Part shown: positions 7,126-52,561 of the stretch, piece by piece
How positions within the stretch are numbered: the first letter of the stretch is position 1
Layout of the letters: each line of letters begins with the position of its first letter
Assembly (NCBI GenBank): GCA_016181175.1
Contig: JACOZV010000001.1
Coordinates: 259,519-323,518, forward strand
DNA: 64,000 nucleotides
From: Candidatus Yanofskybacteria bacterium
GTDB taxonomy: Bacteria; Patescibacteriota; Minisyncoccia; 2-02-FULL-40-12; IGHO2-01-FULL-4-A
Direction of reading: 5' to 3'
Made by a program: the position numbers and the translations under genes
Notes under the pieces: generated by a model
What the model was told of the DNA's origin: nothing
Seen by the model: the letters and a program-made list of their open reading frames with translations, nothing else
The model's database searches: none

Positions 7126-7334
7126 AGGCCATTATGCCTCATAGCACCGTCAAAAGAGTGGATTGTCCCGATTCTGCTTTGCAGAATCGAGGATCCTCGA
7201 TTTTCATGAATGAAAATCGGGACATGGTTTGCGAGCAGTATAATATTTCCTCACTGCGAGCAAAATCCACGCTTTTGACGGAATGTAGAATTCTCGCTGG
7301 GAATTCAAATGGTGATAGGAGGTATAATGGCGAG
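7126..7334 (-). repeat. family-1 TIR/stem element, copy with internal palindromic insertion, followed by tandem partial duplication (7328-7387)
   Basis: reverse complement of 28019-28168 over both ends (ccattatgcctc..tcacc..ccagcgag..ccgtcaaaag.gtggatt). Confidence 0.7.
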
Positions 7335-7462
7335 CTAGTTTTTGAAATTACCAAAAGGCACTATGGCGAGCTGGTTTTTGAATTTGATAAAAATAGTGAT
7401 TCGTGCTATTTTCAATAACAAGTTTTTTAAAAATTAAATTATAGCCGGAGAGGAGGTGGAAT

Positions 7463-17934: not shown

Positions 17935-18094
17935 AGCTTGGCAAATACTGCCTTCTATCACCGCTAGCAACCCCAGCGAGATTGCGTCGCTCCGTTGAAA
18001 GCGTGGATTCGCCTCGCAGTTCAACCATTATACTGCTCGGTGACCGTGCAATCCACCCTTTCAACGGTGCTATAAAGCAGTATTTGCCAAGCTT
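17935..18094 (+). repeat. family-1 TIR/stem element
   Basis: aagcttggcaaatactgc...gcagtatttgccaagctt termini; internal tatcacc, cccagcgag, ccgttgaaagcgtggatt / aatccaccctttcaacgg. Confidence 0.75.
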
Positions 18095-22548: not shown

Positions 22549-22689
22549 CTAACGGGATGAATCCCGAACGAGACAGCCTTTGCCAACAACAAGGAAGGGT
22601 TACGATGGCTATCTAAACGGGATTAATAAAGTATTTTTAATAGGCACGGAAATGATTTACTCAATAAATCATTTCCTGTCTCGTACGGG
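22549..22689 (+). repeat. family-3 element: gaatcccgaacgagacag / ctgtctcgtacggg arms with internal hairpin, ending at start codon
   Basis: near-identical copy at 30285-30377 (opposite strand). Confidence 0.75.
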
Positions 22690-23652
22690 ATGAGACGATA
22701 CCTATTTTTATTAATTCAGATTGTTGTCAGCGCGATGCTGGTTTTTTTTATTTTTCAAAATATTCATTTCGGTGACCTCTCGGGAGCGTTTAAGAACGTG
22801 CAGATAGAATATATTTTTATTGCTTTGGTGTTTTCCATTCCCGCGTGGCTTGTGGGTATTTTCAAATGGCAATTCCTGGCCAAAACCATCGTGGACAAAA
22901 CCCCGCCTTTTAGATTTTTTATTTCATACTATCTTGTGGGATATTTCTACGCTTTATTTGTGCCAGGCGGCCAACTTCTAGGCGAAGGAATGAAGGCTTG
23001 GAGGATGTCTAACAAGTCAGAATTCAAACCCCAGTTGTATTTATCGGTTTTTGCCGATAAGGCCATAGGTTTTATGGCTCTAGGCTGTCTGGTTTTAATA
23101 TCTTTTTTGACACAGCCTGTTTTATACGGCGACAGATTGAGTATTTTGAGTCTCGCGGTAAGTGCCGCCATTGTGCTGGCCGGTATTATGATTTTCTTCA
23201 GTCGCGTTTTGCTGGAATACTTTTATAAGGTTCCTGAATTTTTAGTCAAATTTTTGCCGTTATTTATAGCCGGCCACGTCGCCATTTTAAAGGGACTTCT
23301 CATTAAATACAATCAGCGCAGAAAATCTACTCTTATAGGTATCGGAATCGGAGCCATTGCACAGCTTATATGGGTTTTGGTTATATATTTTATTGCCCTC
23401 TCATTTAATCTCCATGTACCATTTTTATTTATTGCCTGGACTTTTTTGATAATGTCTGTAGCCACTTTTCTGCCGGTATCCTATGCCGGCTTGGGAGTGA
23501 GAGAGGGAACGTTTGTCTATTTTTTTTCGTTGTTGGGCGTATCCCGTGAGCTAGCCTTAAGCATATCGCTTATGCTATTCGGTTTTCAGGTGCTGGCTGC
23601 TTTAATCGGGGGAGGTTTTGAATTAAAAGAATTATGGAGTAGAATAAAATAA
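22690..23652 (+). CDS. polytopic membrane protein, flippase-like / lysylphosphatidylglycerol-synthase-TM-region (UPF0104) family
   Basis: 320 aa, ~8 TM helices. Confidence 0.5.
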   Translation: MRRYLFLLIQIVVSAMLVFFIFQNIHFGDLSGAFKNVQIEYIFIALVFSIPAWLVGIFKWQFLAKTIVDKTPPFRFFISYYLVGYFYALFVPGGQLLGEGMKAWRMSNKSEFKPQLYLSVFADKAIGFMALGCLVLISFLTQPVLYGDRLSILSLAVSAAIVLAGIMIFFSRVLLEYFYKVPEFLVKFLPLFIAGHVAILKGLLIKYNQRRKSTLIGIGIGAIAQLIWVLVIYFIALSFNLHVPFLFIAWTFLIMSVATFLPVSYAGLGVREGTFVYFFSLLGVSRELALSISLMLFGFQVLAALIGGGFELKELWSRIK

Positions 23653-28018: not shown

Positions 28019-28168
28019 GCTCGCCATTATGCCTCCTATCACCATTTGAATTCCCAGCGAGAATTCTACATTCCGTCAAAAGCGTGGATTTTGCTCGCAG
28101 TGTTTTACTATTATACTGCTCGCAAACCGTGCAATCCACTCTTTTGACGGTGCTATGAGGCATAATGC
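28019..28168 (+). repeat. family-1 TIR/stem element
   Basis: ctcgccattatgcctcctatcacc...cccagcgag...ccgtcaaaagcgtggatt...aatccactcttttgacggtgctatgaggcataatgc. Confidence 0.75.
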
Positions 28169-28661: not shown

Positions 28662-28949
28662 TTTAATCTCCTATTTTTAAAAAACTAGTTTAAAACAGCA
28701 TAGCATAAATAGTGATATGTTGTCAAATTTTTGCTATGTTTCAGAATGCTTTCTCAAAAATTAAAAAACCTAAGCCGTCAACAGACGGCGGTTTTTATCA
28801 CTCCCATAATTGTTAAGGAGAGGATGTCAGTTTCCGGCGCAGGCGGACCCTTTTTGTGAAAAATCCCAGCAGGGTGGATTGAACAAAAAGGGTCCGCGGA
28901 GCCGGAAGATAAACTATTATGCTACCTTATTTTAATTTTTGAGGTCTAA

Positions 28950-30284
28950 CTAGCGGAATGCTTTTTTTAAGAGGATATTTATTGTTTTAAGTAAAATTCC
29001 CAGGTCTAAGATCAATGACCTGTTTTTTATGTAAAACAAATCATGCTGGAGTTTTTCATACGTATCTTTGATGGTCATGCCGCCGCGGAAGTCCAGCTTA
29101 TATTTGATTTGCGCCCAACCGGTCAGTCCCGGCTTGACCAAGTAGCGTTCTTCGTAAAAAGGGATTTCAGATTTTAATTTCTGGTGGAACTCGGGTCTTT
29201 CCGGGCGAGGCCCAACAAATGACATTTCGCCGCGCAATATGTTCCAAATTTGCGGTAGTTCGTCAATTCTTGTTTTGCGCAAAAACTTGCCGACTCGCGT
29301 AGTTCGAGCATCATTTTCAGCGGCCCAAATCGGACCCGTACTTTTTTCAATCTCCTGAAACATTGTCCTGAACTTTATTACGGTGAAAATTTTGCCGATT
29401 CGTCCCATTCGTCCTTGGTGATAGAAAACTTGACCACGCGAATCAAGTTTTATAGCTAAGATTATCAAGGGATAAAACGGCAGGGTCAGCAGCCCTATGA
29501 TTATGGTGCCGATTAAATCTAAAATTCTTTTTCCAGTTTCGTATCCGCGTCGGCTACCCTGAGAGAGGTTTTCCAAAAACCAAACCTGATCTATAGTTTC
29601 CAGTGGTATTCTTCCGGCAACTCGTTCATAAAAATCGGACAAGTTGAAAAAATTTATCCCAAAACCTACCAGGTGGTAAAACACGTCTATTATGTGCGGT
29701 ATCTTATAAACCGTCGGAGCCAGAACCAATGTCCGGATATTTTTTCTCTTAATCAGGTTGTCTAAAATTGCAGAAGCGGTTTTATCTCCAATATCAAGTA
29801 TGCCTAAGACGCCGTATCCCAGTTGTGGATTATTCAACAAAAAGTCGTAAAGCTCTTGAGATTGTTGACTCAAGCCGACTATTAATGTATTATTTTTGTA
29901 GCCGTTTTTGGCGGTGAGCCGATTAAAGAAAAAGCGCCAAAATCCTTGTAAGGCTGCAATAATGACAATAAAAACAAATAAGTTGGTTTTGGGGGCGATT
30001 CTAAAAAACTGGACAAAATAGAAGAAAAAAATAGAGATAGACGAAATAACGGCAATTGTATAAAAAAGATCGGAAAAAAAGCGGGCGTTATTTTTAGAAA
30101 GACCTATTTCATACAGATTGGAAATATAAAAAACTATTACCCAAACAACAAAAATAATGGTGAACGGTAGAAAGTGCATGCTGATCTGCTCGTCAAAACT
30201 ACGCCCATACCTTGCATAGAGGGTCAAAAAAAGCGCTAGATATAGGGTAATAATGTCGCCCAAGAAGAGTAAAAATTTACGCAT
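28950..30284 (-). CDS. polyprenyl-phosphate sugar phosphotransferase (bacterial sugar transferase, WbaP/PglC-like)
   Basis: C-terminal [25 protein letters not shown]; N-terminal TM helices; start moved to ATG abutting family-3 repeat. Confidence 0.8.
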
Positions 30285-30377
30285 CCCGTACGAGACAGGA
30301 AATGATTTATCTGAGTAAATCATTTCCGTGCCCATTTAATCTACTTTATTAATCCCGCCTAGATAACCATCGTAACC
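30285..30377 (-). repeat. family-3 element copy (lacks left arm), abuts sugar-transferase start
   Basis: ~90% identical to 22592-22689. Confidence 0.75.
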
Positions 30378-30391
30378 ATTTCGGTATTGGA

Positions 30392-35531: not shown

Positions 35532-35690
35532 GCTTAGCGAATAATACCTTCTATCACCATTTGTCGCCCCAGCGAGGCGACTGCATTCCGTCAAAAATAT
35601 TAATTTTGATTTTGTTGAAGAAATATTGTAACAAAATCAAACCATGCAATTAACACTTTTGACGGTGCTATAAGGTATTATTCGCTAAGC
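35532..35690 (+). repeat. family-1 TIR/stem element
   Basis: gcttagcgaataatacc...ggtattattcgctaagc termini; tatcacc, ccccagcgag, ccgtcaaaa / ttttgacggtgctata. Confidence 0.75.
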
Positions 35691-39720: not shown

Positions 39721-39724
39721 TAAT

Positions 39725-39847
39725 GAATCCCGAACGAGACAGCTAATTTTTACCTTGCTAAATAATTGCCGTGTTATTAGTTGTCATTTATGGCGGGATT
39801 ACTTATAATCAACGGAAATGCATAAAGCATTTCCTGTCTCGTACGGG
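39725..39847 (+). repeat. family-3 element spanning the whole intergenic spacer (arm after stop, arm before ATG)
   Basis: gaatcccgaacgagacagc ... ggaaatgcataaagcatttcctgtctcgtacggg-ATG. Confidence 0.75.
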
Positions 39848-40408
39848 ATGAATATTCAAAAAGTAATTTCGGAGACGAGAGATATATTTCTCAAGTCGGA
39901 CGTGTCTTTACCGCTTTTGCTTAAAATAAAAACCACCGAGCTGGTTTTGAATCTTATGGCCCATCAAAAAAATTTTGGTCTTTTTATAATACTTGGCTGG
40001 CAGGATAAATGGCAGGAATATACGGATATTTCTGATGCCGCTCAGGATATTTTTGTTGCTCACCGCATAAACCTGAACGATATAGAAAATCACTCTGATT
40101 GGTATCTTGAGGTGGAGTCTACGGTTGGTTTTGACGGTGCTATCCTGATAGATGGTAACGGCGTGATACAACACTCCGGCGTTATATTGGAAGGTTTGCG
40201 TCCCCGAATGGTTGCCGACGCGATAAATCCGGGTCAGTTCAAGGACTTGTCAGAACAGTTTGGTTTCAAGCAAAAAGTCCATTCAAGACATCTTTTTGCC
40301 ATTACTTCTTCTCATGTTTTTAAAAATACCGCCGTTTTTACTGTTTCTGAAGAGAACAACACTTTCCACATTTTTGAAGCCGGAAAGATTGTTTACTCAA
40401 CAGACTGA
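39848..40408 (+). CDS. hypothetical protein, possible DisA_N/diadenylate-cyclase-like domain (tentative)
   Basis: FDGAILIDGNGVI...RHLFAIT weakly resembles DAC DGA/RHR motifs. Confidence 0.3.
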   Translation: MNIQKVISETRDIFLKSDVSLPLLLKIKTTELVLNLMAHQKNFGLFIILGWQDKWQEYTDISDAAQDIFVAHRINLNDIENHSDWYLEVESTVGFDGAILIDGNGVIQHSGVILEGLRPRMVADAINPGQFKDLSEQFGFKQKVHSRHLFAITSSHVFKNTAVFTVSEENNTFHIFEAGKIVYSTD

Positions 40409-40795: not shown

Positions 40796-41476
40796 ATGAA
40801 AATTTTAGTTTTACTTTTCGCAATAGCGGTCGTAGCCCTTGGTGGTTATTTTGCCATGAAGAAAGGTGGTGGCGTCAATGTAAGCGCATCGCCAGAGCCG
40901 TCACCGACACCGACTGCTCCTGTAGACATTCAGTCACAAGAACCATTGCCAGATGTAGTCAAAGCCATACTGGTAACCGCTCGCGGCAATATTGAGCTTG
41001 AACTTTACCAGAAAGTGGCGCCCAAAACCGTTGCTAACTTTGTAAAATTAGCCGCATCGGGTTTCTACGATGGCACCAAGTTTCATCGGGTCATTGACGA
41101 TTTTATGATACAAGGGGGCGATCCATTATCTAAAACTGACGATCCTCGCGTGGGCACAGGCGGGCCCGGTTATCAATTTGAAGACGAAATTAACCTCAAA
41201 TCACTTGGCGCTCCGGATGAACTAATTGCCCAATATGAAGCGCAAGGTTATAAATATAGCAACATCCTTCAGTCATTGCCTGTGGATCCGGGTTACATTG
41301 CCATGGCTAATGCCGGACCTAATACCAATGGCAGTCAGTTTTTTATCGTGACAACTAAACCCCAACAACATCTCTATGGCAAACACACGGTATTTGGCAA
41401 AGTGGTTAAGGGAATGGATGTGGTGTTAAAAATCAAACAGGGAGATTTATTAAAGAAGGCAGTTGTTAATTTTTAA
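40796..41476 (+). CDS. cyclophilin-type peptidyl-prolyl cis-trans isomerase, membrane-anchored/secreted
   Basis: [22 protein letters not shown]. Confidence 0.85.
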
Positions 41477-41525
41477 ACATTGATATTTATTTAAAAATTA
41501 AAAATTGGAAATTAAAAATTCTTGA
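41476..41525. promoter_or_regulatory. AT-rich repeat motif ttaaaaattaaaaattggaaattaaaaatt (shared with 49060-49139 in opposite orientation)
   Basis: ~30-bp near-identical block. Confidence 0.5.
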
Positions 41526-42233
41526 ATGTCGTTTGTAAGAACCTCAAAACTACTAAAAATATCCCGCGCCAATATTCAGCTGATGAAAGAATGTCCGCGC
41601 TGTTTTTGGTTATACAAGCATAAGGGTATCGGTCGGCCGCAGGGCTATCCGTACACGCTTTCAATAGCAGTAGACCAGTTGCTTAAGCATGAGTTTGACG
41701 AGTATCGGGAGAGGGGAGAGATGCACCCGGTTTTAGTTGGATTTGATGGGCTGGCGGAAGCTCATCTTTTTTCTGACCAAGGACAGCTTCAAAAGTGGCG
41801 CAATAATTTTGAAGGACTTAAATACCACGACGAGGGTCTGGATGCCACGCTTTTCGGTGCGGTTGACGATATGTTGGAGTTTTCCGATGGTTCGCTTGCG
41901 GTGATAGATTATAAATCTTCAGGTGCCAAGGAAATATCCGTTTATGATGATTACAAAATGCAGATGGATGTCTATACGTATATTTTGGAACAACTCGGTT
42001 ATAAGACTGCCCGAAAAGGGTATTTCGTATTTTTTCAGGTAGACAAAACAGACGGTTTTAGAGGGCGTTTGCCGTTTCGTGGTGAAATACGTGATGTGGA
42101 TGCTGATCCAAGCTATATTTATGATCTTTTTGCTAAGGCCGTTACCTTGGCTCGTTCAGACAATCCACCTCCGTCTCATGCCGAGTGTCAATATTGTATG
42201 TATGCGGAGCACCATAAACATATAAATGAATAA
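41526..42233 (+). CDS. PD-(D/E)xK nuclease, Cas4/RecB-nuclease-like with Cys cluster
   Basis: N-terminal CPRCFWL, VIDYKS (D-x-K), C-terminal CQYCMY. Confidence 0.6.
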   Translation: MSFVRTSKLLKISRANIQLMKECPRCFWLYKHKGIGRPQGYPYTLSIAVDQLLKHEFDEYRERGEMHPVLVGFDGLAEAHLFSDQGQLQKWRNNFEGLKYHDEGLDATLFGAVDDMLEFSDGSLAVIDYKSSGAKEISVYDDYKMQMDVYTYILEQLGYKTARKGYFVFFQVDKTDGFRGRLPFRGEIRDVDADPSYIYDLFAKAVTLARSDNPPPSHAECQYCMYAEHHKHINE

Positions 42234-43689
42234 AATGGTTGATAAAAAACCAAAACTTACCGGCGAACATTTTTATAAATTTTTCCAATGTCCGCATTGG
42301 ATTTGGTATGATATCTATGCCGATCAAACCAAAAAGGGTGGAATTCCTCCTCTGATAGAGATGATTCACCGGGGCGGTCTCAAGCATGAAAAAGAAATGA
42401 TCCAGACGCGCAAGTTTGAAGAAATAAAGCCGGAACTTTTTCGCGATCTTGATGAAGCTTTTTTGTCTACGCTTGAGCTGATGAAACAAGGGAAAAATAT
42501 CTACCACGGTGTGTTGATGGATCAGAATTGGGTTGGCATTCCGGACCTGCTTGAAGCGCGGCCAGTGGAGAAAGGAATGAAATCTAACTTTGGTGACCAT
42601 TACTATGTTGTATATGATGTTAAAACCGGCAAAGAAATGCGTGACGAATACAAATTCCAGCTGGTTTTCTACAGTTTAATTTTGGAACGACTGCAGGGGG
42701 TTTTGCCGCGCGATGCTTTTATCGTCAACTCTGACGGCGAGGAGCGTTCATTCATGGTTGATGACTTTCTTGACTATTTTCACTTGACCAGGGAGAGAAT
42801 TGAACGAGTTTTGGCCGGCGAAAAACCGCCACCATTTCTTAAAAGTGGCTGCAAGCAATCGCCATGGTATTCACTTTGTGTTGATGAGACAAAGGGTTGC
42901 GACGATGTCTCGTTGATTTACAGGTTGAGCCAGAACGACCAACGGCGTTTTTATGAACTTGGTATACATAGCGTAAAAGATTTGGCTTCAGCCGATTTGG
43001 ATAACTTACGTTCGCGGCTTGAAGACTGGCCGTTTGATAAAATCCTGCGTTTTTATAATCAGGCCCAAGTACTGGTTTCAAACGAGCCAAAAGTTCTCAA
43101 GAAAAGCGAGTTTCCTCAAGTAGAAAACGAAATATATTTTGATATTGAATCTGATCCAACGGAGGGCATCGATTATCTTTTTGGGATGCTCATAAAAAGC
43201 GGAAACAAAAAACCCGAATACAAATATTTTTTGGCACAGGATAAAAAGGACGAGGAAAGGGTGTGGCGTGATTTTTTGGATTTTCTCGAATCTCTTAATG
43301 ACTTTGTCATTTATCACTATTCTTATTACGAAAGAGAAGTTTTTAAGCGTTTGGGCAATGAATATGGTATTTCAGTGGCGCTTGAAGATAAGTTCAAAAA
43401 TAATACAATTGATTTACACTGGAAATTTATTGAAGCAGCAGTTTTGCCAATTTATTTTTACAGCCTAAAAGATGTTGCCAAGTATCTTGGCTTCAAATGG
43501 CAGGCCGATGACGCTGGCGGAGCAGAATCGGTGGTTTGGTACAATGATTGGTTGCAGAAGCATGACCAAAAAATCATGGACAAAATCATCAAATATAATG
43601 AGGACGATGTAAAAGCTACACTGTTTCTCAAGGAGTGGTTGGATAAACAAAAACCCCGAACAAGCAAGGAGCGACTGCCGGAAGACTAG
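42226..43689 (+). CDS. RecB-family nuclease (TM0106-like) with C-terminal RNase-H-like 3'-5' exonuclease (YprB-like) domain
   Basis: CPHWIWY, YDVKTGKEMRDEYKFQL; IYFDIESDP...YHYSYYE. Confidence 0.55.
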   Translation: MNKMVDKKPKLTGEHFYKFFQCPHWIWYDIYADQTKKGGIPPLIEMIHRGGLKHEKEMIQTRKFEEIKPELFRDLDEAFLSTLELMKQGKNIYHGVLMDQNWVGIPDLLEARPVEKGMKSNFGDHYYVVYDVKTGKEMRDEYKFQLVFYSLILERLQGVLPRDAFIVNSDGEERSFMVDDFLDYFHLTRERIERVLAGEKPPPFLKSGCKQSPWYSLCVDETKGCDDVSLIYRLSQNDQRRFYELGIHSVKDLASADLDNLRSRLEDWPFDKILRFYNQAQVLVSNEPKVLKKSEFPQVENEIYFDIESDPTEGIDYLFGMLIKSGNKKPEYKYFLAQDKKDEERVWRDFLDFLESLNDFVIYHYSYYEREVFKRLGNEYGISVALEDKFKNNTIDLHWKFIEAAVLPIYFYSLKDVAKYLGFKWQADDAGGAESVVWYNDWLQKHDQKIMDKIIKYNEDDVKATLFLKEWLDKQKPRTSKERLPED

Positions 43690-43895: not shown

Positions 43896-45287
43896 GTGTT
43901 ACGTAGATTTACTCCATTGATAATTTTAGCCGTTGCTCTGTTTTTGGGCGTTTTTGCTTATCCTCAAGGTTGGGATATGGGCGCGGACATAGTAAATTCA
44001 AAACTCAAAATCCAAAATTCAAAATATAAGATTCCACGTATGTTTAAAATTCCGCCATTTCGTCTTGGTCTTGACCTGTTGGGCGGTACCCACTTAGTTT
44101 ATCAAGCCGATTTGTCTGGAACCGAGGGTCAAAGCGCTGGTGACGCTATGTCTGGTGTGCGTGACGTTATCGAGCGCAGAGTTAATCTTTTTGGCGTTGC
44201 AGAACCGTTGGTGCAAATTGAAGGCAACGATCGTCTTGTGGTGGAATTGGCCGGCATCAAAGATGTAAATCAGGCAATACAGATGATTGGTCAGACGCCA
44301 TTTTTGGAATTCAAAGAAGAACGTCCGTCAGAAGAGTCGCAAAAAATTATTGAAGCCCAACAAAAAGGTTCATCCAGCACCAGTTTGGACAGCCCCGAAC
44401 TGGTGCTGGACAAGCAACAGTTTGAAGATCCGTATTTTAAGCCAACCGGTTTAACCGGTCGATATCTTAAGCGTTCCCAATTGACATTTGATCAGACAAC
44501 ATCACAACCGGAGGTTTCGCTGGAATTAAACGACGACGGAGCAAAATTATTTGCTGAAATTACAAAGCGAAATATTGGGAAGCGTGTTGCAATTTATGTT
44601 GACGGCGTGGGCATAAGCGCACCGACGGTTCAAAGCGAAATTCCAAGCGGTCGTGCCGTGATCAGTGGCAGTTTTTCCATAAAAGAAGCCAGGGATTTAG
44701 TTAACAATCTTAATGCCGGGGCACTGCCGGTACCGATAAATTTAATTTCACAACAGACGGTGGGCCCTTCTTTGGGGCAGGAATCACTGCAAAAATCATT
44801 GACGGCCGGCTTATACGGATTGCTTGCGGTAGCCATTTTCATGATATTGTTTTACCGTTTGCCCGGCCTTGTGTCAGTTGTCGCTTTGTTGGTGTATGTT
44901 GCAATTGTTCTGACTGTCTATAAAGTAATTCCGGTAACGCTGACTTTGGCCGGAATAGCAGGTTTTATATTGTCTTTGGGTATGGCTGTGGATGCCAATA
45001 TTTTGATTTTTGCCAGAATGCGCGAAGAGTTAAAGGCTGGCAATTCTTTAGCACAGTCATTTGCAAGCGGTTTCCACCGAGCTTGGTACTCAATCCGTGA
45101 CAGTCACGTTACAACTTTGCTCGGCGCTTTTGTGCTGTATGCTTTTTCAACATCTGTGGTTAGGGGATTTGCTTTGACGCTTGGAATCGGAGTTTTGGCA
45201 AGTTTGTTTACGGCCATTGTTATTACTAAATCATTTTTAAGGTTGTTTATTGGACACAAAATGGAGAAAACAAAGTGGATGTTTTAA
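43896..45287 (+). CDS. secD: protein-export membrane protein SecD
   Basis: 463 aa; N-terminal TM, periplasmic domain, C-terminal 6-TM RND-like block. Confidence 0.9.
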   Translation: MLRRFTPLIILAVALFLGVFAYPQGWDMGADIVNSKLKIQNSKYKIPRMFKIPPFRLGLDLLGGTHLVYQADLSGTEGQSAGDAMSGVRDVIERRVNLFGVAEPLVQIEGNDRLVVELAGIKDVNQAIQMIGQTPFLEFKEERPSEESQKIIEAQQKGSSSTSLDSPELVLDKQQFEDPYFKPTGLTGRYLKRSQLTFDQTTSQPEVSLELNDDGAKLFAEITKRNIGKRVAIYVDGVGISAPTVQSEIPSGRAVISGSFSIKEARDLVNNLNAGALPVPINLISQQTVGPSLGQESLQKSLTAGLYGLLAVAIFMILFYRLPGLVSVVALLVYVAIVLTVYKVIPVTLTLAGIAGFILSLGMAVDANILIFARMREELKAGNSLAQSFASGFHRAWYSIRDSHVTTLLGAFVLYAFSTSVVRGFALTLGIGVLASLFTAIVITKSFLRLFIGHKMEKTKWMF

Positions 45288-45291
45288 ATAT

Positions 45292-45570
45292 GAATCCCAA
45301 ACGAGACAGCAAAACCATGTTTTATACATATGTTTTAAGAAATAAAAAAAGCCGCTTTTATGTTGGTTTTACTTATGATTTACGGAAACGCTTCAATGAA
45401 CATAATAATAAAAAATCAACTTATACAAAATATCGTGGCCCATACGAACTTATTTACTATGAAGCTTGTCTTGATGAGAATGACGCTCGTTAAAGAGAAA
45501 AGTATTTTAAATCTGGAACAGGTAAACGCTACTTCAAAAACAGATTGAAGCGTTTCCTGTCTCGTACTGG
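45292..45570 (+). mobile_element. family-3 arms enclosing a GIY-YIG ORF, inserted between secD and secF
   Basis: gaatcccaaacgagacagc after secD stop; ttcctgtctcgtactgg immediately before secF ATG. Confidence 0.6.
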
Positions 45571-45571
45571 A
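45317..45571 (+). pseudogene. GIY-YIG nuclease (YhbQ-like) interrupted by in-frame TAA at codon 59; would otherwise end ATGA-overlapped with secF
   Basis: FYTYVLRNKKSRFYVGFTYDLRKRFNEHN...YELIYYEACLDENDAR-stop-REKYFKSGTGKRYFKNRLKRFL. Confidence 0.6.
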
Positions 45572-46461
45572 TGAAACCCATATATACAATTATGTTTTTT
45601 ATTTCCATGGCGCTGACTGTCGCGGCCGTTATTTTGGTGGCAGTTTTTGGTTTGCGTTTTGGGGTAGATTTCAAGGGCGGCTCTTTACTGGAAATTGCCT
45701 TTGTTAATCCTCGTCCATCAACCGGAGAAATACAAAATATTATAAGCGGGATTGACGGTGTCAAAAACATAAATGTAAATCCGGTGGGTGACAACGGTGC
45801 TTTAATAAGGCTAAATGATATCAATGAGCAGACTCATCAAGATATTTTAACTAAGATTTCCGGAAGTTTTGGTGAGATAATGGAAAATCGCTTTGATTCC
45901 ATAGGTCCTGTAGTCGGCAATGAGTTGAGAGATAAGAGCGTTAAGGCAATAGTAATTTTATTAATAGCTATAATTATTTATCTCGCTTTTGTTTTTAGGA
46001 AAATTTCACGCGTTCTTTCCTCTTGGGCTATGGGTTTAGCTGCCATTGTTGCGCTGGTTCATGATGTTATTATACCCGTTGGCGTTTTTGCGTTACTTGG
46101 GCATTATTATGGAATTGAGATTACGGCAATTTTTGTGGCGGCCGCATTAACTATTTTGGGGTATTCGCTTTCTGACTCCGTTGTTATTTTTGATAGAGTA
46201 AGAGAAAACGTGCTTCGTTTGGGCATTTCTCATCAAAGTTTCGGAGCACTTGTCCACAAAAGTGTCTTACAAACCCTGGTCCGTTCCATTAATACGACCC
46301 TCACAACGCTATTTTCTCTGATTGTGATTTACTTTTTTGGAGGAGAATCAATAAAATACTTTTCTTTAGCCCTAATTATAGGTATTTTTTCAGGCGCTTA
46401 TTCTTCAATTTTTGTTGCTTCTCCGATTCTAGTTTGGCTTAGCAATCGACGCAAGAGTTAA
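45571..46461 (+). CDS. secF: protein-export membrane protein SecF
   Basis: 296 aa, 6-TM SecF pattern. Confidence 0.9.
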   Translation: MKPIYTIMFFISMALTVAAVILVAVFGLRFGVDFKGGSLLEIAFVNPRPSTGEIQNIISGIDGVKNINVNPVGDNGALIRLNDINEQTHQDILTKISGSFGEIMENRFDSIGPVVGNELRDKSVKAIVILLIAIIIYLAFVFRKISRVLSSWAMGLAAIVALVHDVIIPVGVFALLGHYYGIEITAIFVAAALTILGYSLSDSVVIFDRVRENVLRLGISHQSFGALVHKSVLQTLVRSINTTLTTLFSLIVIYFFGGESIKYFSLALIIGIFSGAYSSIFVASPILVWLSNRRKS

Positions 46462-46628
46462 AAAATATGGTGGTATTGACATGTCAGGCGCACGGTTATA
46501 TGTTGATATGTTAAGCAGTTGACCCATTTAAAACTATATGGTATCTTTATAAATAACAACCAACTAATGGTTAGAAAATAGTAATAATTAGTTTACTTTT
46601 TACTATTATTTGTTGGCATAAGTGATAC

Positions 46629-47684
46629 TTGACAAATTTGAATAGTACAATCAGGGGGGTAGTCGGACAGGTGCTTTATGTTTTAAACACCAGAAATAAG
46701 GATGTGATATCCCGGCGTTTTGGTTTGAAAACCGGCAAAAAAGAGACGCTGGAATCGATTGGTAAAAGCTACGGTATTACTCGTGAAAGAGTCAGGCAGA
46801 TTGAAGAAGCATCGCTAAAGCAGATTAGGGAAAATTTAAATTCCAGCCTGGCCAGTAAGGTGAAGCCCTTTGTTGACCTTGCTGAAAACACTCTTGAACA
46901 AGCCGGAGGTGTAACCAGCGAAGATAATCTTTTTGCAAAGTTTTCGGGTGTTGCTAAAGAAAATCCGGCCAATGCTACACTAGTCTTTTTTCTTTCTTTG
47001 GATGGCAGACTCAGGAAATTTATTGAGACTGATGATTTTAATACTTTTTGGGCATTATCCGATCAGCATGCCGAATCATTTAATAAGTCCATTTTTGCTT
47101 TTATCGACGCTCTAAAAAAGTTAGGGACGCCAATTGCCGAATCGGCAGTTGTCGATTTTTATAAGAAATCTGGTGCCACCCTCAAAGATGTAACGTCTGC
47201 AACTGTTGCTTCTTTTATTTCAGTTTCTAAGAATATTGCCAAAAACAACTTTGGCCAGCTTGGTTTGACTAGTTGGCCTGACATAAAACCTCGTGGCGTA
47301 AAAGATAAGGCCTTTCTTGTGCTTAAGCGTGATGGTAAGCCCCGACATTTCAGGGAAATAACCCAATTGATTAATACGTCAAGTTTTGGTAACCGCAAGG
47401 CTAATGTACAAACAGTTCACAACGAACTAATCAAGGACAAAAGATTTGTTTTAGTTGGCCGCGGTTTATACGGTTTGACCGAATGGGGATATAAGGCGGG
47501 AACCGTTAAAGATGTTATAGTTGACATATTGCGTTCTACCGGTCAGCCCATGCATAAAAAAGACATTGTAACCCAGGTTTTATCTAATCGTATGGTTAAA
47601 GAAAATACGATTCTTTTAAATTTACAGAACCCCAAAGTCTTTGAAAGAAAAGGCAATGGAGTCTACGCACTTAAAGAAGCATAA
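46629..47684 (+). CDS. sigma-70 region-4-like HTH protein with C-terminal HARE-HTH-like domain
   Basis: ETLESIGKSYGITRERVRQIEEASLKQIR; C-terminal KKDIV...GVYALKE. Confidence 0.55.
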   Translation: MTNLNSTIRGVVGQVLYVLNTRNKDVISRRFGLKTGKKETLESIGKSYGITRERVRQIEEASLKQIRENLNSSLASKVKPFVDLAENTLEQAGGVTSEDNLFAKFSGVAKENPANATLVFFLSLDGRLRKFIETDDFNTFWALSDQHAESFNKSIFAFIDALKKLGTPIAESAVVDFYKKSGATLKDVTSATVASFISVSKNIAKNNFGQLGLTSWPDIKPRGVKDKAFLVLKRDGKPRHFREITQLINTSSFGNRKANVQTVHNELIKDKRFVLVGRGLYGLTEWGYKAGTVKDVIVDILRSTGQPMHKKDIVTQVLSNRMVKENTILLNLQNPKVFERKGNGVYALKEA

Positions 47685-47690
47685 ATGCTT

Positions 47691-47768
47691 CCAGTAAACG
47701 GTAATCAGTAACCAGTAATCAGTAATTTATTTTTTGATTTTTCCAGTTACCAGTTACGAGTTACTAAT
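47691..47768. repeat. inverted arrays of agtaacc/agtaatc heptamers around a T-run
   Basis: taatcagtaaccagtaatcagtaat ... ccagttaccagttacgagttactaat. Confidence 0.7.
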
Positions 47769-47779
47769 TACTTTGTATT

Positions 47780-49057
47780 TTGTTCTACGACGTTTTTAGT
47801 CCACTAAAAACCGCTTTTTCTCTTATCTTGCTCTATTGGTGGATTTTCACCCCGTTTTTATTTTTTTTCGGCGCACTTGACGGCTGGCTTTTTTATAAAA
47901 GAAAAAAGCACCTGCTCTCCATCAGGTGGGTTTTACTTGAGGTTAAGCCTCCACCTGACGTCCAAAAAAGTCCCAAAATAGCTGAAAATATATTTTCTGG
48001 CCTTCACGCTGTTTATTCGGGACCAAAAAGCTGGAAGGACAAATTTTTTAAAGGCGAAGTTCAGCCCTGGTTTTCGTTTGAAATCGTTGGCAATGGCGGT
48101 GAAATTAACTTTTATGTCAGGACACCAGAAGACCTGCGCAACTTAGTCGAAGCTCAAATTTTCGCGCAGTATCCAGACGCGGAAATTAAAATTGCTGATG
48201 ATTACATAAGCCAACTTCCCGAGCATTTGCCCAACAATGACTATGATATGTTCGGCACCGAACTCGTATTTTCAAAACCAAACGCCTATCCAGTCAAAAC
48301 GTATCCGTTTTTTGAAGAGGAGTCCGGCAAGGACGAATTCAGGCGGACGGATCCACTGGCACCGCTTGCAGAAATAATGAGTGCGTTGGAATCAGGCGAG
48401 CACATCTGGGTGCAGCTTTTAATAAGGGCTACTGGCGATGCGTGGGTTAAAGAAGCAAAGATTGAGATAGACAAACTAGTCGGCAAAGAGCCAAAAATTG
48501 AACGCGATGCGCTTGGCAAAGCTGTTGACTTTGTGGACCAGCTTTTGCCTGGCGGAACACCACCGCAGGAAGAAAAGAAAAAAGAAGATTTTTCACCGCA
48601 AAAACTTACGCCGGGTCAGAAATTTACTCTTGAACAGGTTGAAAATAAAATTTCAAAACTGGGCTTCAAATCCGGTTATAGATTTTTTTACATTGCGCGC
48701 AAAGACCGTTTTCATGGGTCACATATTTCAGCGGTTATGGGCATGTTCAAACAGCTTTATTTCAATAACCTTAACAGTTTCAAACCCAATAAAAGGGTTA
48801 TTACCAAGGACAAAGGATGGTTCCCATGGCTTTTCCCTTCGGAAAAAGGATTTTTTTATCGTGAACGTGAATATAGGCGCAAGGAGTATCTTTATCAGAA
48901 ATACCGCGAGAGGGCTTTTGTCGACCAGTTTATAATTTTAAACACTGAAGAACTAGCCACATTATTCCATTTGCCTGGCATTGGCGTGAAGGCGCCGGCA
49001 TTTCCAAGGGTTGAAGCGAAGAAGGGGCAACCGCCTGCCGGTTTACCAACAGGGTAG
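47780..49057 (+). CDS. hypothetical membrane-anchored protein
   Basis: N-terminal TM helices; 425 aa. Confidence 0.45.
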   Translation: MFYDVFSPLKTAFSLILLYWWIFTPFLFFFGALDGWLFYKRKKHLLSIRWVLLEVKPPPDVQKSPKIAENIFSGLHAVYSGPKSWKDKFFKGEVQPWFSFEIVGNGGEINFYVRTPEDLRNLVEAQIFAQYPDAEIKIADDYISQLPEHLPNNDYDMFGTELVFSKPNAYPVKTYPFFEEESGKDEFRRTDPLAPLAEIMSALESGEHIWVQLLIRATGDAWVKEAKIEIDKLVGKEPKIERDALGKAVDFVDQLLPGGTPPQEEKKKEDFSPQKLTPGQKFTLEQVENKISKLGFKSGYRFFYIARKDRFHGSHISAVMGMFKQLYFNNLNSFKPNKRVITKDKGWFPWLFPSEKGFFYREREYRRKEYLYQKYRERAFVDQFIILNTEELATLFHLPGIGVKAPAFPRVEAKKGQPPAGLPTG

Positions 49058-49059
49058 AA

Positions 49060-49139
49060 TGTTGATAATTTTTAATTTCCAATTTTTAATTTTTAAACAT
49101 TAGAAATTATTTATAAAATTAAAAATTTAAAAATTTTTC
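49060..49139. promoter_or_regulatory. AT-rich repeat motif (inverted copy of 41476-41525 block)
   Basis: aatttccaatttttaatttttaa. Confidence 0.5.
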
Positions 49140-50828
49140 ATGAACGTAGTGAATGACAATCCAGTCGTATTATTTGGTGAAACTAACTTTCGCAATAAGA
49201 AAGTGACTTTTGGTGTTAAGATGGATGACCGCCGCCGCCATATGTATGTAATCGGTAAAACCGGTATGGGCAAATCAGAACTGCTCAAAAATATTGCCAT
49301 ACAGGATATTCAGGATGGCAGGGGGCTTGCTTTTGTTGATCCGCACGGGGATCCTGTTGAAGACCTGTTTGATTACATTCCAGAAGACAGAATAAAAGAT
49401 GTTATTTATATAAATCCTGCCGATTTGGAATATCCGATTGCTTTCAATGTCATGGAACAAGTTGATCCAGACAAGCGCCACCTGGTTGCTGACGGTGTGA
49501 TGGGCGTATTCAAAAAAATATGGGTTGACGTATGGTCGCCGCGCATGGAATACATCCTCAATAACACCATCTTGGCTTTGTTGGAAACTCCGGATGCGAC
49601 ACTGCTTGGCATTAATAGAATGCTTGCCGAGAAGGAATATCGGGCAAAAGTTGTGAATCAGCTAACTGATCCGGTTGTAAAAGCGTTTTGGACTGAAGAA
49701 TTTGCCAAATACGCCGACAGATTTGCTTCGGAGGCAACAGCGGCGATACAAAACAAAGTTGGTCAGTTCGTATCCTCATCTTTAATCCGCAACATTATTG
49801 GCCAATCGAAATCCACGCTTGATATGCGAAAAATTATGGACGACGGTAAGATTCTGCTGGTCAATATTTCAAAGGGAAGAATCGGCGAAGATGCCTCGCG
49901 ATTGCTTGGTGCGTTGATTATCACCAAAATTCAGCTTGCGGCAATGTCTCGTGTTGACATGCCAGAGCGGGAGCGCAAGGATTTTATACTTATGGTAGAC
50001 GAATTCCAGAATTTTGCCACTGCTTCATTCGCCAATATTTTATCGGAGGCCCGCAAATATCATTTAAGTTTGGTTATTGCACACCAGTATGTTGCACAAA
50101 TGGACGAAGGTGTCAGAGATGCGGTTTTTGGCAATGTGGGAACAATTGTTTCTTTTAGAGTGGGCGCAGAAGATGCAGAATTACTGGAAAAAGAATTAGC
50201 GCCGGAATTCATGGCAACCGATATAGTTAATCTAGGCAAAAGGCAGATATATTTGAAGCTTATGATTGACGGTGTGGCGTCGCGCGCTTTTTCAGCAATG
50301 ACGATGGATACAATTAAACGCTTACCCATCGGTTATCGCCAAAGAATTATCGACTATTCAAGAGAACATTATTCTGCTCGCCGTGAAGATGTGGAGAAAA
50401 AAATTGCTGACTGGCATGCCCCGGTAACTGCTGATATTAGCAGATTCGACAAATCCACCGCGGGCAGATTTTATGATGAACGTCCGCAACGCGAAATGCG
50501 TTCGCCACGCCCAAATTATGGCGAGTCAAACCGATTCGATACTCTTCCAACACGATTTGAACCCAGACCCCAAGTTTTTCAGCATCGTCCCGCACCCAGC
50601 GAGGTTAGGGCCGTGCCTGGACCCATGCGATCTAATCCCATTGCTTCATCTAAACCACCAATTAAACCAATTTCTTTTTCAGAAGCCATAAAAAGCGGTC
50701 CTGTTGATTTTAAGGGGCGCAAACTTGAGCCAAAAACAGTTGTGCCGCGACCAAAAGTTGAAGTTGATGTCGGTGGATTGCGTAAGATTCTGGAAGAGAG
50801 CATGAACAAAGAAGAAAGCCCTGATTAG
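49140..50828 (+). CDS. FtsK/HerA/TraD(VirD4)-superfamily P-loop ATPase with Pro-rich disordered C-terminus
   Basis: GKTGMGKS Walker A, VDPHGD, ILMVDEFQNF Walker B. Confidence 0.6.
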   Translation: MNVVNDNPVVLFGETNFRNKKVTFGVKMDDRRRHMYVIGKTGMGKSELLKNIAIQDIQDGRGLAFVDPHGDPVEDLFDYIPEDRIKDVIYINPADLEYPIAFNVMEQVDPDKRHLVADGVMGVFKKIWVDVWSPRMEYILNNTILALLETPDATLLGINRMLAEKEYRAKVVNQLTDPVVKAFWTEEFAKYADRFASEATAAIQNKVGQFVSSSLIRNIIGQSKSTLDMRKIMDDGKILLVNISKGRIGEDASRLLGALIITKIQLAAMSRVDMPERERKDFILMVDEFQNFATASFANILSEARKYHLSLVIAHQYVAQMDEGVRDAVFGNVGTIVSFRVGAEDAELLEKELAPEFMATDIVNLGKRQIYLKLMIDGVASRAFSAMTMDTIKRLPIGYRQRIIDYSREHYSARREDVEKKIADWHAPVTADISRFDKSTAGRFYDERPQREMRSPRPNYGESNRFDTLPTRFEPRPQVFQHRPAPSEVRAVPGPMRSNPIASSKPPIKPISFSEAIKSGPVDFKGRKLEPKTVVPRPKVEVDVGGLRKILEESMNKEESPD

Positions 50829-51077
50829 GCAAACCCTGGAGTTACATCAAAAATTACAAATTTAATTAGCAAAAAAGATTATTTGCCGGCTACGCGCACG
50901 TGTTTTGCTGGCCCTCTTGGACAGGCGCAAAACGCGCGCGCCTCCGCCGGTAAGTAACATCCTCTGCTTAGCAATTATGGGAGTGATAAAAACCGCCGAT
51001 TGGTATCGGCTTTTGTTTTGTAATTTTTGATGATAGCAATTTGATTTTTTGTATTTTTTGATATTTAATCAAAGGTA

Positions 51078-52364: not shown

Positions 52365-52398
52365 AACCGGCTTAAGCCGGTTTTATGGTTTATGAGGG

Positions 52399-52447
52399 TC
52401 CGTCCACCAGGAATCGAACCTGGAACCTTCTCCTTAAAAGGGAGCTG
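52399..52447 (-). repeat. duplicated 3' half (anticodon stem to 3' end) of tRNA-Lys, not a complete tRNA
   Basis: 49 nt identical to 52489-52537 region of the full gene. Confidence 0.8.
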
Positions 52448-52488
52448 TCCTGGTTTTGTAAACAAAATCGAGGATTCTCGATACAAAG

Positions 52489-52561
52489 TCCGTCCACCAG
52501 GAATCGAACCTGGAACCTTCTCCTTAAAAGGGAGCTGCTCTACCAATTGAGCTATGGACGG
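52489..52561 (-). tRNA. tRNA-Lys (anticodon UUU)
   Basis: manual fold: acceptor CCGTCCA/TGGACGG, U8, D-loop AATTGGTA, anticodon loop CUUUUAA, T-loop TTCGATT. Confidence 0.75.

Follow-up and report, generated by a model that had tools for sequence, protein, structure and literature searches.

The MITEs and palindromic intergenic repeats described in bacteria include the Correia elements of Neisseria, the Rickettsia palindromic elements (RPEs), REP/BIME and ERIC. Correia elements and RPEs can provide stop codons as well as outward-directed signals for expression, and a MITE is not usually found exactly conserved between lineages that are very distant. Cyanobacterial STRRs are heptanucleotide repeats, and 'putative mobile promoters' were reportedly described by Matus-Garcia et al. 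in 2012. We analysed a 64-kb stretch of the genome of an ultra-small bacterium, Candidatus Yanofskybacteria (Patescibacteria), hereafter the window, in which a 31-nt sequence beside two nuclease genes recurs beside an ATPase gene, and found that this 31-mer is the terminal arm of an AT-rich element of roughly 75–110 nt with imperfect inverted ends of about 33 nt. Like MITEs and small palindromic repeats, the element is a non-coding unit of about 100 nt with inverted ends of about 30 nt, multi-copy, intergenic, found in either orientation, and present or absent between close relatives; like Correia elements and RPEs, it can supply stop codons and putative outward expression signals. It differs from MITEs in being extremely AT-rich, in having ends made of tandem 7-nt units of variable number, and in its range, since MITEs are found within one genus whereas exact identity over 23–31 nt of this element spans class- and phylum-level lineages of Patescibacteria. 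With STRRs it shares tandem 7-nt units in intergenic DNA, and with the putative mobile promoters a homologous upstream sequence that precedes non-homologous genes; it is distinguished from both by its unit sequences and host group, and in that its heptads form both arms of one palindromic unit. No description of the element came up when the literature was searched by keyword and by motif sequence. The repeat appears to be undescribed, and seems to us a more interesting by-product of the analysis than the nuclease pair itself. On the reading of the whole locus that we find more likely than not, it combines a nuclease pair with a presumptive role at DNA ends and a 31-mer that is an arm of a dispersed element, with a putative promoter or leader function, and not a private operator.

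A 23-nt core of the motif was scanned in species-representative genomes, and the copy counts given here are taken from the matches listed. Among these, more than 120 are exact, mostly in Patescibacteria of many lineages (Parcubacteria, Microgenomates, Saccharibacteria, Gracilibacteria, Peribacteria and others) and with several exact arms per genome, while 2.9 million viral contigs contained no match to the core. The flank of the motif is conserved over about 50 nt upstream, and its 3' edge is sharp. Bipartite units number 44 among the matches listed; their modal length is 101–112 nt, each end is conserved over about 33 nt, and one of the two copies in the window (copy B, Table 1) is among them. 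The arms are built of 7-nt units (TTAAAAA / TTGGAAA) whose number differs between copies, a variation that fits slippage as well as transposition, and tandem 7-nt units are strongly over-represented in intergenic DNA (8 arrays against 0.4 expected). The element fills intergenic spacers in either orientation: among the matches listed, 31 motif copies lie at most 30 nt upstream of the start of a long ORF (mode 7 nt), 30 face a convergent stop codon, four lie 5–17 nt before tRNA-His, tRNA-Val, tRNA-Arg or tmRNA, and eight fall inside ORFs. The proteins encoded downstream of the motif are diverse, with 84 Pfam families in 35 proteins and none of the families seen more than twice. A sigma-54 reading of TTGGAAA was considered and rejected, the GG-N10-GC signature not being present on direct reading.

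Table 1. Genes and repeat copies of the locus, with positions in the window
Feature	Position	Strand	Basis
Cyclophilin-type PPIase gene (upstream neighbour of ORF1)	40796..41476	+	Pfam Pro_isomerase, E=3e-47
AT-rich repeat element, copy A (half element)	41466..41520	+	Sequence reading, repeat scan, nhmmer
ORF1, RecB/Cas4-like PD-(D/E)xK nuclease, 235 aa	41526..42233	+	Domain profiles, alignment A1, AF2 model
ORF2, TM0106-family nuclease, 487 aa (484 aa from ATG 42235)	42226..43689	+	TIGR03491, RNase_H_2, alignment A3
DUF8128-family membrane-associated protein, 425 aa	47780..49057	+	Precomputed PF26449 on orthologs
AT-rich repeat element, copy B (short complete bipartite unit)	49067..49136	.	Sequence reading, repeat scan, nhmmer
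VirD4/TraD/HerA-like P-loop ATPase, 562 aa	49140..50828	+	TrwB_AAD_bind, DUF87, TraG-D_C

A sequence-only reading of this DNA had noted a motif of about 30 bp upstream of the nuclease genes that recurs in inverted form near the ATPase gene. The repetition is exact, with a 30-mer at 41491–41520 (+) and 49067–49096 (−), and on reading the sequence the identity of the two inverted copies extends to 31 nt (41490–41520 / 49067–49097). The window holds no further copy of the 30-mer at up to 3 mismatches. Copy A consists of a 12-bp palindromic stub (TTAATTTTTAAA / TTTAAAAATTAA) followed by a canonical right arm that includes the exact 31-mer; this arm is in sense orientation, points into ORF1 and ends 5 nt before its ATG, and the last codons and stop of the PPIase gene (..AAT TTT TAA) fall inside the copy. 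Copy B, about 70–75 nt long, carries the exact 31-mer as its left arm (49067–49097) on the minus strand, antisense and 42 nt before the ATPase ATG, aimed at the stop codon of the DUF8128 gene, together with a degenerate right arm at about 49101–49136 (ATTATTTATAAAATTAAAAATTTAAAAATT) that stops 3 nt short of the start codon of the ATPase gene (49141 as the end projected by the tool). An nhmmer model of the element matched copy A at 41461–41520 (E=1.5e-7) and copy B at 49099–49067 on the minus strand (E=7.6e-5) and 49078–49127 on the plus strand (E=0.8). Chance low complexity was rejected as the source of the motif, given that the 30-mer was matched in 0 of 100 shuffles, that the viral contigs were without matches, and that the matches in other genomes are mostly from Patescibacteria and in most cases have the conserved flank. 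No target-site duplication was recognisable by reading the AT-rich flanks of the window sites and of the counterpart in the closest relative. Rfam gave no family at either site, and on the plus strand the motif regions folded as RNA no more stably than shuffles did (z=−0.7 for copy A, −0.3 for copy B), the minus strand of copy B giving a modest value (z=−2.3); a structured-RNA reading was dropped because folding is near the shuffle level.

The element is present at these orthologous sites in one genome and absent from them in close relatives. The motif is missing from both intergenic sites in relatives 93% and 86% identical, and the element model found no match in 702 kb covering 80 syntenic loci. 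In the closest relative (L010) the PPIase stop overlaps the ORF1 start (TAATG), leaving the site empty, and a different, GC-rich palindrome precedes the ATPase gene; in L001, other heptamer arrays stand at both motif sites. We propose that the element landed at two gene junctions of this genome where close relatives lack it, and that its insertion would have replaced translational coupling, as suggested by the TAATG of the closest relative, with an AT-rich spacer lacking an SD. An outward-facing arm may then serve as promoter or leader, its TAAAAAT, a −10-like sequence, standing 5–7 nt before the start codon, and a promoter so placed would yield leaderless or near-leaderless transcripts. A TTTAAA-N17/18-TAAAAA(T) arrangement is readable in the arm, and a consensus scan flagged 49092–49119 only. 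Promoter activity could explain only part of the pattern, since half of the exact arms among the matches listed point at the 3' ends of genes. As a tentative generalisation, to which we give somewhat less than an even chance, undescribed AT-rich elements of about 105 nt with inverted, heptad-built ends may colonise gene junctions throughout Patescibacteria and spread between lineages, their outward arms giving SD-independent and possibly leaderless signals to the next gene, tRNA or tmRNA. If this is true, the element would be a portable 'gene-boundary cassette' common to a very deep bacterial radiation.

Two further readings of the motif have to be weighed against that of a dispersed junction element. 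It is unlikely, in our judgement, that the element is nothing more than a strong promoter conserved in Patescibacteria, one that is kept by selection and does not spread, with UP-like A-tracts, a −35-like TTTAAA and a −10-like TAAAAAT. The architecture is bipartite with inverted ends, the putative −35/−10 spacer is as conserved as the hexamers while the heptad number varies, orthologous sites in relatives are without the element, and most other genes of the window have ordinary TTGACA/TATAAT-like and SD-like upstream sequences instead. Although the sharp 5–7-nt spacing to start codons, the tRNA and tmRNA genes 5–17 nt downstream, the conservation of both arms across lineages and a spacer too short for an SD would all suit such a promoter, arms face convergent stops as often as they face starts (30 against 31 among the matches listed). 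The sequence-only reading had taken the motif as a hint of co-regulation, which would make the 31-mer a shared operator or promoter that controls the nuclease pair and the VirD4/FtsK-like ATPase as one DNA-processing system. An exact identity of 31 nt is indeed unexpected by chance, both copies are intergenic and near two gene starts, and in many relatives no more than about 6 kb separates the ATPase module from ORF2; yet the arm is sense at 5 nt from ORF1 and antisense at 42 nt from the ATPase gene, the 93% and 86% identical relatives have the motif at neither site and the 80 syntenic loci lack it, dozens of unrelated genes and tRNAs are flanked by it in other genomes, and genes for SecDF and a sigma-like protein lie between the two copies. 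Co-regulation is thus largely refuted, and we regard a shared operator as very improbable. The motif does not link the nucleases to the ATPase because it is an arm of a repeat that stands at gene boundaries in many unrelated Patescibacteria. Outside this genome the motif is generic, which the sequence-only reading had itself named as counter-evidence: the 23-nt core recurs exactly at more than 120 sites elsewhere, in front of unrelated genes and of RNA genes.

The protein assignments of the sequence-only reading fared better, namely a Cas4-like, cysteine-bearing PD-(D/E)xK nuclease, a TM0106-type nuclease with an RNase-H-like exonuclease domain and an FtsK/HerA/TraD-like ATPase, all of which were borne out by profile searches. 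ORF1 matches PDDEXK_1 (PF12705) with 39.2 bits (cutoff 22) and, marginally, Cas_Cas4 (PF01930) with 23.3 bits (cutoff 22.7). In alignment A1 its residues C23, C26, C221, D58, D115, D128-Y-K130, Q146 and Y150 are invariant, and C224 is replaced by Gly in 5 of 27 homologs. Its AF2 model (pLDDT 86) has as top PDB folds the AdnAB nuclease domain, Cas4 SSO0001, MGME1, lambda exonuclease, ACE1 and Exo5, the Foldseek matches to RecB-fold exonucleases having E=5e-6 to 1e-2 and TM about 0.4–0.55; a PDB sequence search gave no match at E<=1. ORF1 is a predicted stand-alone RecB/Cas4-fold nuclease in which the PD-(D/E)xK and QxxxY catalytic residues are all conserved. It shares the RecB fold and the D...D-x-K and QxxxY motifs with Cas4, AddB, AdnAB, lambda exonuclease, MGME1 and Exo5, but its cysteines are arranged 2+2 as CxxC...CxxC, the fourth not being universal, whereas those of Cas4 and AddB are 1+3, and the C-x(n)-C-x2-C-x5-C pattern of the latter is absent from the alignment of 27 sequences. 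It is further set apart from Cas4-type nucleases by a score below the cutoff of the TIGR00372 cas4 equivalog (32.7 against 65) and by the lack of cas neighbours and of a helicase partner.

TM0106 corresponds to COG2251 and to family F.13 of a survey of the RNase H-like superfamily (PMC3985635). ORF2 scores 321.8 bits against the family model TIGR03491 (cutoff 97.45) over profile positions 4–462 of 462, and its C-terminal half matches RNase_H_2 (PF13482) with E=2e-35; it is a member of this family, with a Cas4-like domain (one N-terminal and three C-terminal Cys) and an intact domain of the DEDDy 3'-5' exonuclease type. In alignment A3 (26 sequences), C19, C206, C215, C222, D104, E107, D128 and Y146 of the N-terminal domain and D303, E305, D393, Y454 and D458 of the C-terminal domain are invariant, Q142 is nearly so (at least 90%), and the Lys of the D-x-K motif varies across the family (K/R/Q), being Gln or Arg in some homologs. 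The C-terminal half of the structural model has a pLDDT of 85–95 and the N-terminal half is of low confidence; Foldseek with the full model found no more than weak and partial similarity to Cas4, Dna2 and RNase H (E>=0.013), a PDB sequence search gave no match at E<=1, and the TIGR00372 cas4 equivalog gave a score of 35.0, under its cutoff of 65. The 100%-identical NCBI protein is already called 'TM0106 family RecB-like putative nuclease'. ORF2 matches the family model end to end, including the 1+3 Cys domain, the DEDDy residues of PF13482 and the lack of CRISPR association, and nothing structural sets it apart within a family that has neither a characterised member nor a solved structure. The 1+3 pattern is also that which binds a 4Fe-4S cluster in Cas4 and AddB. 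What distinguishes ORF2 from other TM0106 proteins is its place in a Patescibacteria-specific syntenic block, where in part of the lineage it is adjoined by a second, stand-alone nuclease.

The two nuclease genes are co-oriented and tightly packed whichever start codon of ORF2 applies. An 8-nt overlap, as had been described for the pair, holds if ORF2 starts at ATG 42226; with ATG 42235, which matches the conserved start in the ortholog from L001 (86% identical), it gives way to a gap of 1 nt after ORF1. The gene order is PPIase-ORF1-ORF2-SecD-SecF-sigma-r4/HARE-HTH-DUF8128-VirD4-like ATPase, and this PPIase-to-ATPase block, including both nuclease genes, is vertically inherited. A PPIase gene lies upstream of the ORF1 homologs in L001, L007 and L010, in 36 of 57 loci SecD follows ORF2 at a distance of at most 1.2 kb, and DUF8128 and the ATPase were found in 23 and 15, respectively, of 33 syntenic loci. 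A same-strand ORF1 ortholog is located upstream of ORF2 in 36 of 59 loci and directly adjacent in 17, so that the adjacency of ORF1 and ORF2 is restricted to part of the lineage. The DUF8128 gene is conserved as the neighbour upstream of the ATPase gene and as its partner; the DUF8128 product had no match in the Pfam copy searched, and its orthologs in L001 and L010 carry precomputed PF26449 (DUF8128). The ATPase scores 37.3 bits against TrwB_AAD_bind (cutoff 20.5), also matches DUF87/HerA, TraG-D_C and the PADLOC model mad8 (E=6e-17), and falls far below cutoff for all NCBIfam conjugation equivalogs. Neither in the window nor in L001 did a VirB4-type or T4SS cluster appear in its vicinity. 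In these respects the ATPase resembles the VirD4-like homologs of CPR bacteria, of which 5,713 have been reported, most without a T4SS cluster beside them (bioRxiv 10.1101/2025.01.22.634366), these orphan homologs likewise having TrwB_AAD_bind and TraG-D_C; it differs from them in always standing behind a DUF8128 membrane protein, within the SecDF/sigma block.

Such a neighbourhood might suggest that the nuclease pair, DUF8128 and the VirD4-like ATPase form a machine for DNA import or DNA processing, for example one that degrades or trims translocated DNA for nucleotide salvage or recombination. In many loci with an ORF2 identity of 61–86%, the genes for ORF2, SecDF, sigma/HARE, DUF8128 and the ATPase keep one order on a single strand, and the thousands of orphan VirD4-like genes of Patescibacteria have no known role (bioRxiv 10.1101/2025.01.22.634366). 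We consider this machine improbable, since four unrelated housekeeping genes lie in between, L004 has the nuclease pair but no ATPase within 10 kb, the DUF8128/ATPase pair is missing from about 10 of 33 loci with room for it, and genes can stay in order in small genomes that rearrange slowly without sharing a function. A CRISPR-independent anti-phage defence module of Cas4-like nucleases is less probable still, to the point of being very doubtful. PADLOC Cas4 models do match both ORF1 and ORF2 (E=1e-11 to 1e-8), but each is under the Cas4 equivalog cutoff, the window is without a complete defence system, and the two genes lie in a stable, vertically inherited housekeeping block, not in a variable island. 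Repeat scans detected no CRISPR-like array in the window and the 54 window ORFs, scanned for protein families, yielded no Cas family beyond the weak Cas4-like matches, in agreement with the earlier statement that CRISPR arrays and cas genes are lacking here; neither was found in the related loci examined. The TM0106 family is not known to be associated with CRISPR systems, and we infer that the pair is not a CRISPR or defence module.

ORF1 and ORF2 are real, already-annotated genes of housekeeping type that belong to known but uncharacterised families. Judged from their domain families, DNA-end processing or repair is their most likely role, in which the two proteins would trim the 5' and 3' strands of DNA ends in repair or recombination. 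We know of no obvious RecBCD/AddAB-type machinery in Patescibacteria, which makes the TM0106 nuclease, conserved and accompanied by a second RecB-fold nuclease in part of the lineage, a reasonable candidate for DNA-end processing, one that could be tested in the now-tractable Saccharibacteria. As originally posed, the finding of a nuclease pair carries little weight, its regulatory link to the ATPase having fallen away. The junction element, near-identical in distant Patescibacteria and standing 5–7 nt before starts and RNA genes, could serve as an expression signal for genetic tools, and could mark sequence exchange among Patescibacteria. The Rfam scan of the whole window returned a single tRNA, plus a sub-threshold Phe_leader match.

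An exact 30-nt motif at 41491-41520 (+), ahead of the PD-(D/E)xK nuclease gene ORF1, recurs at 49067-49096 (-), ahead of the VirD4-like ATPase gene (49140-50828), and the identity reaches 31 nt when the sequence is read directly. The sequence-only reading had described a motif before the nucleases that recurs inverted before the ATPase gene, and this was confirmed, with no match to the 30-mer in 100 shuffles of the sequence; the window has no further copy, even when up to 3 mismatches are allowed. An nhmmer model built from the element, the AT-rich repeat unit whose terminal arm is the motif, has just three matches in the window, at 41461-41520 (+), at 49099-49067 (-) and a weak one at 49078-49127 (+), and no match at E ≤ 1 across the 702 kb that make up 80 syntenic loci. 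In L010, a relative at 93% identity, the stop codon of the PPIase gene and the ORF1 start overlap (TAATG), so that there is zero spacer between the two genes, and a different, GC-richer palindrome lies ahead of the ATPase gene; in the 86%-identical relative L001, other heptamer arrays occupy both orthologous spacers. Judged by these sequence comparisons, the two exact copies are lineage-specific insertions. The two L001 spacers (9967-10006 and 18247-18286) share, as inverted copies that are 75% complementary over 40 nt, the heptamer TTTGGAT/ATCCAAA, a pair that is probably not specific to them, since units of this family are frequent in the rest of that locus.

A 23-nt core of the motif, TTAAAAATTGGAAATTAAAAATT, has at least 120 exact matches in a species-representative genome collection and none in 2.9 million viral contigs. 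The matches listed are mostly from Patescibacteria, among them Staskawicz-, Moran-, Nealson-, Taylor-, Zambryski-, Nomura-, Kuenen-, Falkow-, Buchanan-, Doudna-, Davies- and Shapirobacteria, Saccharibacteria, Gracilibacteria and Peribacteria; in most of these listed copies, the 45-50 nt upstream of the core are also conserved (..AATTTTTAAACATT..ATTATTTAAAAA), and the 3' edge of motif copies is sharp. A few listed matches from Bacteroidia lack the conserved flank and look, from their sequence, like independent heptamer arrays. Some listed matches with the typical flank are in MAGs labelled Gammaproteobacteria or Bdellovibrionales, which means either that the element is present beyond Patescibacteria or that the labels of these bins are wrong. 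Thirteen contigs are labelled "uncultured Gammaproteobacteria" or "Bdellovibrionales" (L016, L021, L022, L035, L037, L048, L052, L055, L069, L080, L104, L116, L118); in most of them, the element comes with the flank typical of Patescibacteria, and L035, L048, L069 and L080 carry the bare 23-mer only.

Among the matches listed, two arms stand back to back as one unit in 44 loci, with a modal length of 101-112 nt, both ends conserved and the centre more variable (consensus AATTTTTAATTTT(g/a)TAATTTTTAAATAAT ... AATGTTTAAAA ... TTATTTAAAAATTAAAAATTGGAAATTAAAAATT). Each arm consists of successive 7-nt units (TTAAAAA, TTGGAAA, TTGAAAA, TTAGAAA, TTACAAA), which differ in number and sequence from copy to copy. 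Of 113 evaluable exact copies among the matches listed, 31 have the start of a long ORF no more than 30 nt downstream, 30 point towards the stop codon of a convergent ORF, 8 are inside ORFs and 44 are in other contexts. The distance from arm to start codon, again among the matches listed, peaks sharply at 7 nt (5-7 nt in 17/38), the distance to stop codons spreads from -9 to +12 nt, and four copies are followed after 5-17 nt, on the same strand, by tRNA-His, tRNA-Val, tRNA-Arg or tmRNA. These positions relative to starts, stops and RNA genes show that the element takes up whole spacers and can lie either way round. The narrow range of distances to starts and RNA genes, together with the lack of room for a Shine-Dalgarno sequence, suggests that the outward arm carries a putative expression signal; it could be read as TAAAAAT in the role of a -10-like element, preceded at 17-18 nt by TTTAAA, an arrangement that would place the predicted transcription start at the ATG or just before it. 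Most other genes in the window are preceded by ordinary TTGACA/TATAAT-like and Shine-Dalgarno-like sequences. In its design, the element is similar to MITEs or Correia-like elements; no description was found in the open-access literature by keyword or sequence string, and no Rfam family covers it.

The proposal that the motif hints at co-regulation of the nucleases with the ATPase was not borne out, because the two copies differ in strand and in position relative to their genes, are lineage-specific, and belong to a motif that accompanies unrelated genes across the radiation. Nor is the motif special to nuclease or ATPase genes, as in the wider group it lies upstream of unrelated ones: among the matches listed, 35 proteins downstream of copies carry 84 Pfam families, none more than twice, with EF-G, GyrA, DnaE, MreB, Tgt, RRF and FolD as examples.

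Coordinates of genes and repeats in the window (L010 where stated)
Feature	Position	Strand	Length	Remarks
ORF1	41526-42233	+	235 aa	PDDEXK_1
ORF2	42226-43689	+	487 aa	TIGR03491 + RNase_H_2
Site A, half unit	41466-41520			left end gives PPIase stop codon; exact arm ends 5 nt before ORF1 ATG
Site B, short complete unit	49067-49136			exact arm points back at DUF8128 stop codon; degenerate arm stops 3 nt short of ATPase ATG
Second junction-filling family	22557-22693, 39723-39851, 45290-45574
Second junction-filling family	30282-30380	-
Third family, palindromic repeats	7223-7335, 28019-28131, 17945-18079, 35541-35677; L010 8310-8372		~70-113 nt
Tandem 7-nt arrays	25009-25043, 36552, 43998-44034, 47692-47771

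Domain and family model matches show that the two nucleases and the ATPase had been correctly identified. ORF1 scores 39.2 bits with PDDEXK_1 (Pfam cutoff 22), is marginally above the Pfam cutoff for Cas_Cas4 (23.3, cutoff 22.7) and, at 32.7, stays well below the 65 required of a Cas4 equivalog. Since C23, C26, C221, D58, D115, D128-Y-K130, Q146 and Y150 are invariant across 27 homologs, ORF1 is apparently an active RecB-fold nuclease; its fourth cysteine, C224, is Gly in 5/27, and its CxxC...CxxC arrangement is unlike the 1+3 pattern seen in Cas4 and AddB. Top fold matches of its AlphaFold model (pLDDT 86.4) are the AdnAB nuclease domain, Cas4 SSO0001, MGME1, lambda exonuclease, the Argonaute-associated Cas4-like ACE1 and Exo5. 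With 879 matches at E ≤ 1e-3, ORF1 belongs to a widespread Patescibacteria PD-(D/E)xK family.

ORF2 is covered end to end by TIGR03491, the TM0106 family (321.8 bits, cutoff 97.45), and matches RNase_H_2 at E=2e-35; a 100%-identical ORF2, encoded on a 374,535-bp NCBI contig, already bears the name "TM0106 family RecB-like putative nuclease". Homologs place the window in Candidatus Yanofskybacteria (Patescibacteria). Across 26 homologs, the cysteines C19, C206, C215 and C222 (1+3 pattern), the residues D104, E107, D128 and Y146 and the DEDDy set (D303, E305, D393, Y454, D458) are invariant, and Q142 is nearly so (≥90%). ORF2 is an ordinary representative of a family that is known but uncharacterised, the COG2251 architecture (PF13482 + DUF83) having been listed as a presumed 3'-5' exonuclease family in a 2014 survey of the RNase H-like superfamily (PMC3985635). 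Sequence searches of solved structures returned no relative of either nuclease, and the predicted ORF2 model gave weak and partial fold matches only.

The two genes are co-oriented, and the reported 8-nt overlap stands if ORF2 starts at ATG 42226, a codon also found in L010; L001 lacks it and starts ORF2 at the equivalent of 42235, which would leave a 1-nt gap. Either arrangement may be the true one, and both imply a single transcription unit. The window, L001 and L010 share the order PPIase, ORF1, ORF2, SecD, SecF, a sigma-region-4/HARE-HTH protein, DUF8128 and VirD4-like ATPase; the related locus L004 keeps ORF1-ORF2 and lacks the downstream block, and L007 has an ORF1 homolog (55% identical) after PPIase without a TM0106 neighbour. 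In 80 metagenome loci encoding ORF2 relatives (61-86% identity), SecD is the steadiest neighbour, lying within 1.2 kb downstream in 36/57 loci with room; DUF8128 occurs in 23/33 and the ATPase in 15/33. A same-strand ORF1 ortholog is upstream of ORF2 in 36/59 loci and directly adjacent in 17/59 (11/17 at ≥70% ORF2 identity, 6/42 at 60-70%). On these counts, the ORF1-ORF2 "pair" is a lineage-limited adjacency within a larger, stable housekeeping block. The order from ORF2 through SecD, SecF, sigma70 region 4/HARE-HTH and DUF8128 to the ATPase (window 43896-50828; ORF2-relative loci L131-L210) persists to 61% ORF2 identity, and it includes an unusual 351-aa protein with sigma region 4 fused to a HARE-HTH domain (46629-47684).

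The nucleases most likely serve in metal-dependent DNA-end processing, as inferred from their sequences: ORF2 would join a Cas4-like nuclease to a proofreading-type 3'-5' exonuclease, and ORF1 would act as a second RecB-fold nuclease. A role in defence is less likely, since the genes sit in stable housekeeping synteny and PADLOC shows no complete defence system; as noted previously, there is no CRISPR array (repeat scans of the window) and there are no Cas proteins among 54 window ORFs (PADLOC and Pfam scans). DNA import by the nucleases together with the VirD4-like ATPase is likewise less well supported than end processing, since other genes intervene between them and some loci lack the ATPase, which argues against a dedicated import machine. 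VirD4-like genes that stand apart from any T4SS are reported to be general in Patescibacteria (bioRxiv 10.1101/2025.01.22.634366). Elsewhere in the window, two ORFs match Pup_ligase (best E=9e-93), and other ORFs have PADLOC matches to E1-E2/E2, viperin-like radical SAM, mad2/mad8 (two each) and a type IV methyl-directed restriction enzyme.

Further repeats were observed. Copies of a second junction-filling family have ATGA on both sides and 16-nt inverted repeats (ATCCCGAACGAGACAG/CTGTCTCGTACGGGAT), the right-hand GGGATGA giving the downstream gene its ATG; the copy between SecD and SecF contains a 72-aa GIY-YIG-like ORF (45275-45493) and the remaining copies are non-coding (~130 nt), a picture that suggests full and miniature versions of one element targeting overlapping stop/start (ATGA) junctions. 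Third-family repeats contain ..CCTTCTATCACC..CCCCAGCGAG.., two copies being 94% complementary over 113 nt, and a related palindrome occupies the DUF8128/ATPase spacer of L010 at exactly the place of the AT-rich element in the window. Tandem 7-nt arrays number 8 in the window against 0.4 ± 0.6 in dinucleotide shuffles, with no enrichment over such shuffles for periods 8-12; among their units are TTACCAG/CAGTAAT, ahead of the DUF8128 gene, and AAATTCA, within the SecD reading frame towards its 5' end, and L001 has similar arrays, some inside SecA and SecD. A 50-nt exact direct duplication (52398-52447 and 52488-52537) overlaps a tRNA region, and because Rfam calls a single tRNA there (52489-52561, minus strand), the upstream copy could be a piece of a tRNA gene, for example an integration scar. 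Lastly, a 103-nt inverted repeat (28754-28856 and 50928-51030, 83% complementary), one arm of which lies just downstream of the ATPase gene, contains a TTGGTATCGGCTT..GTAATTTTTG motif that is also present at 5729-5758.
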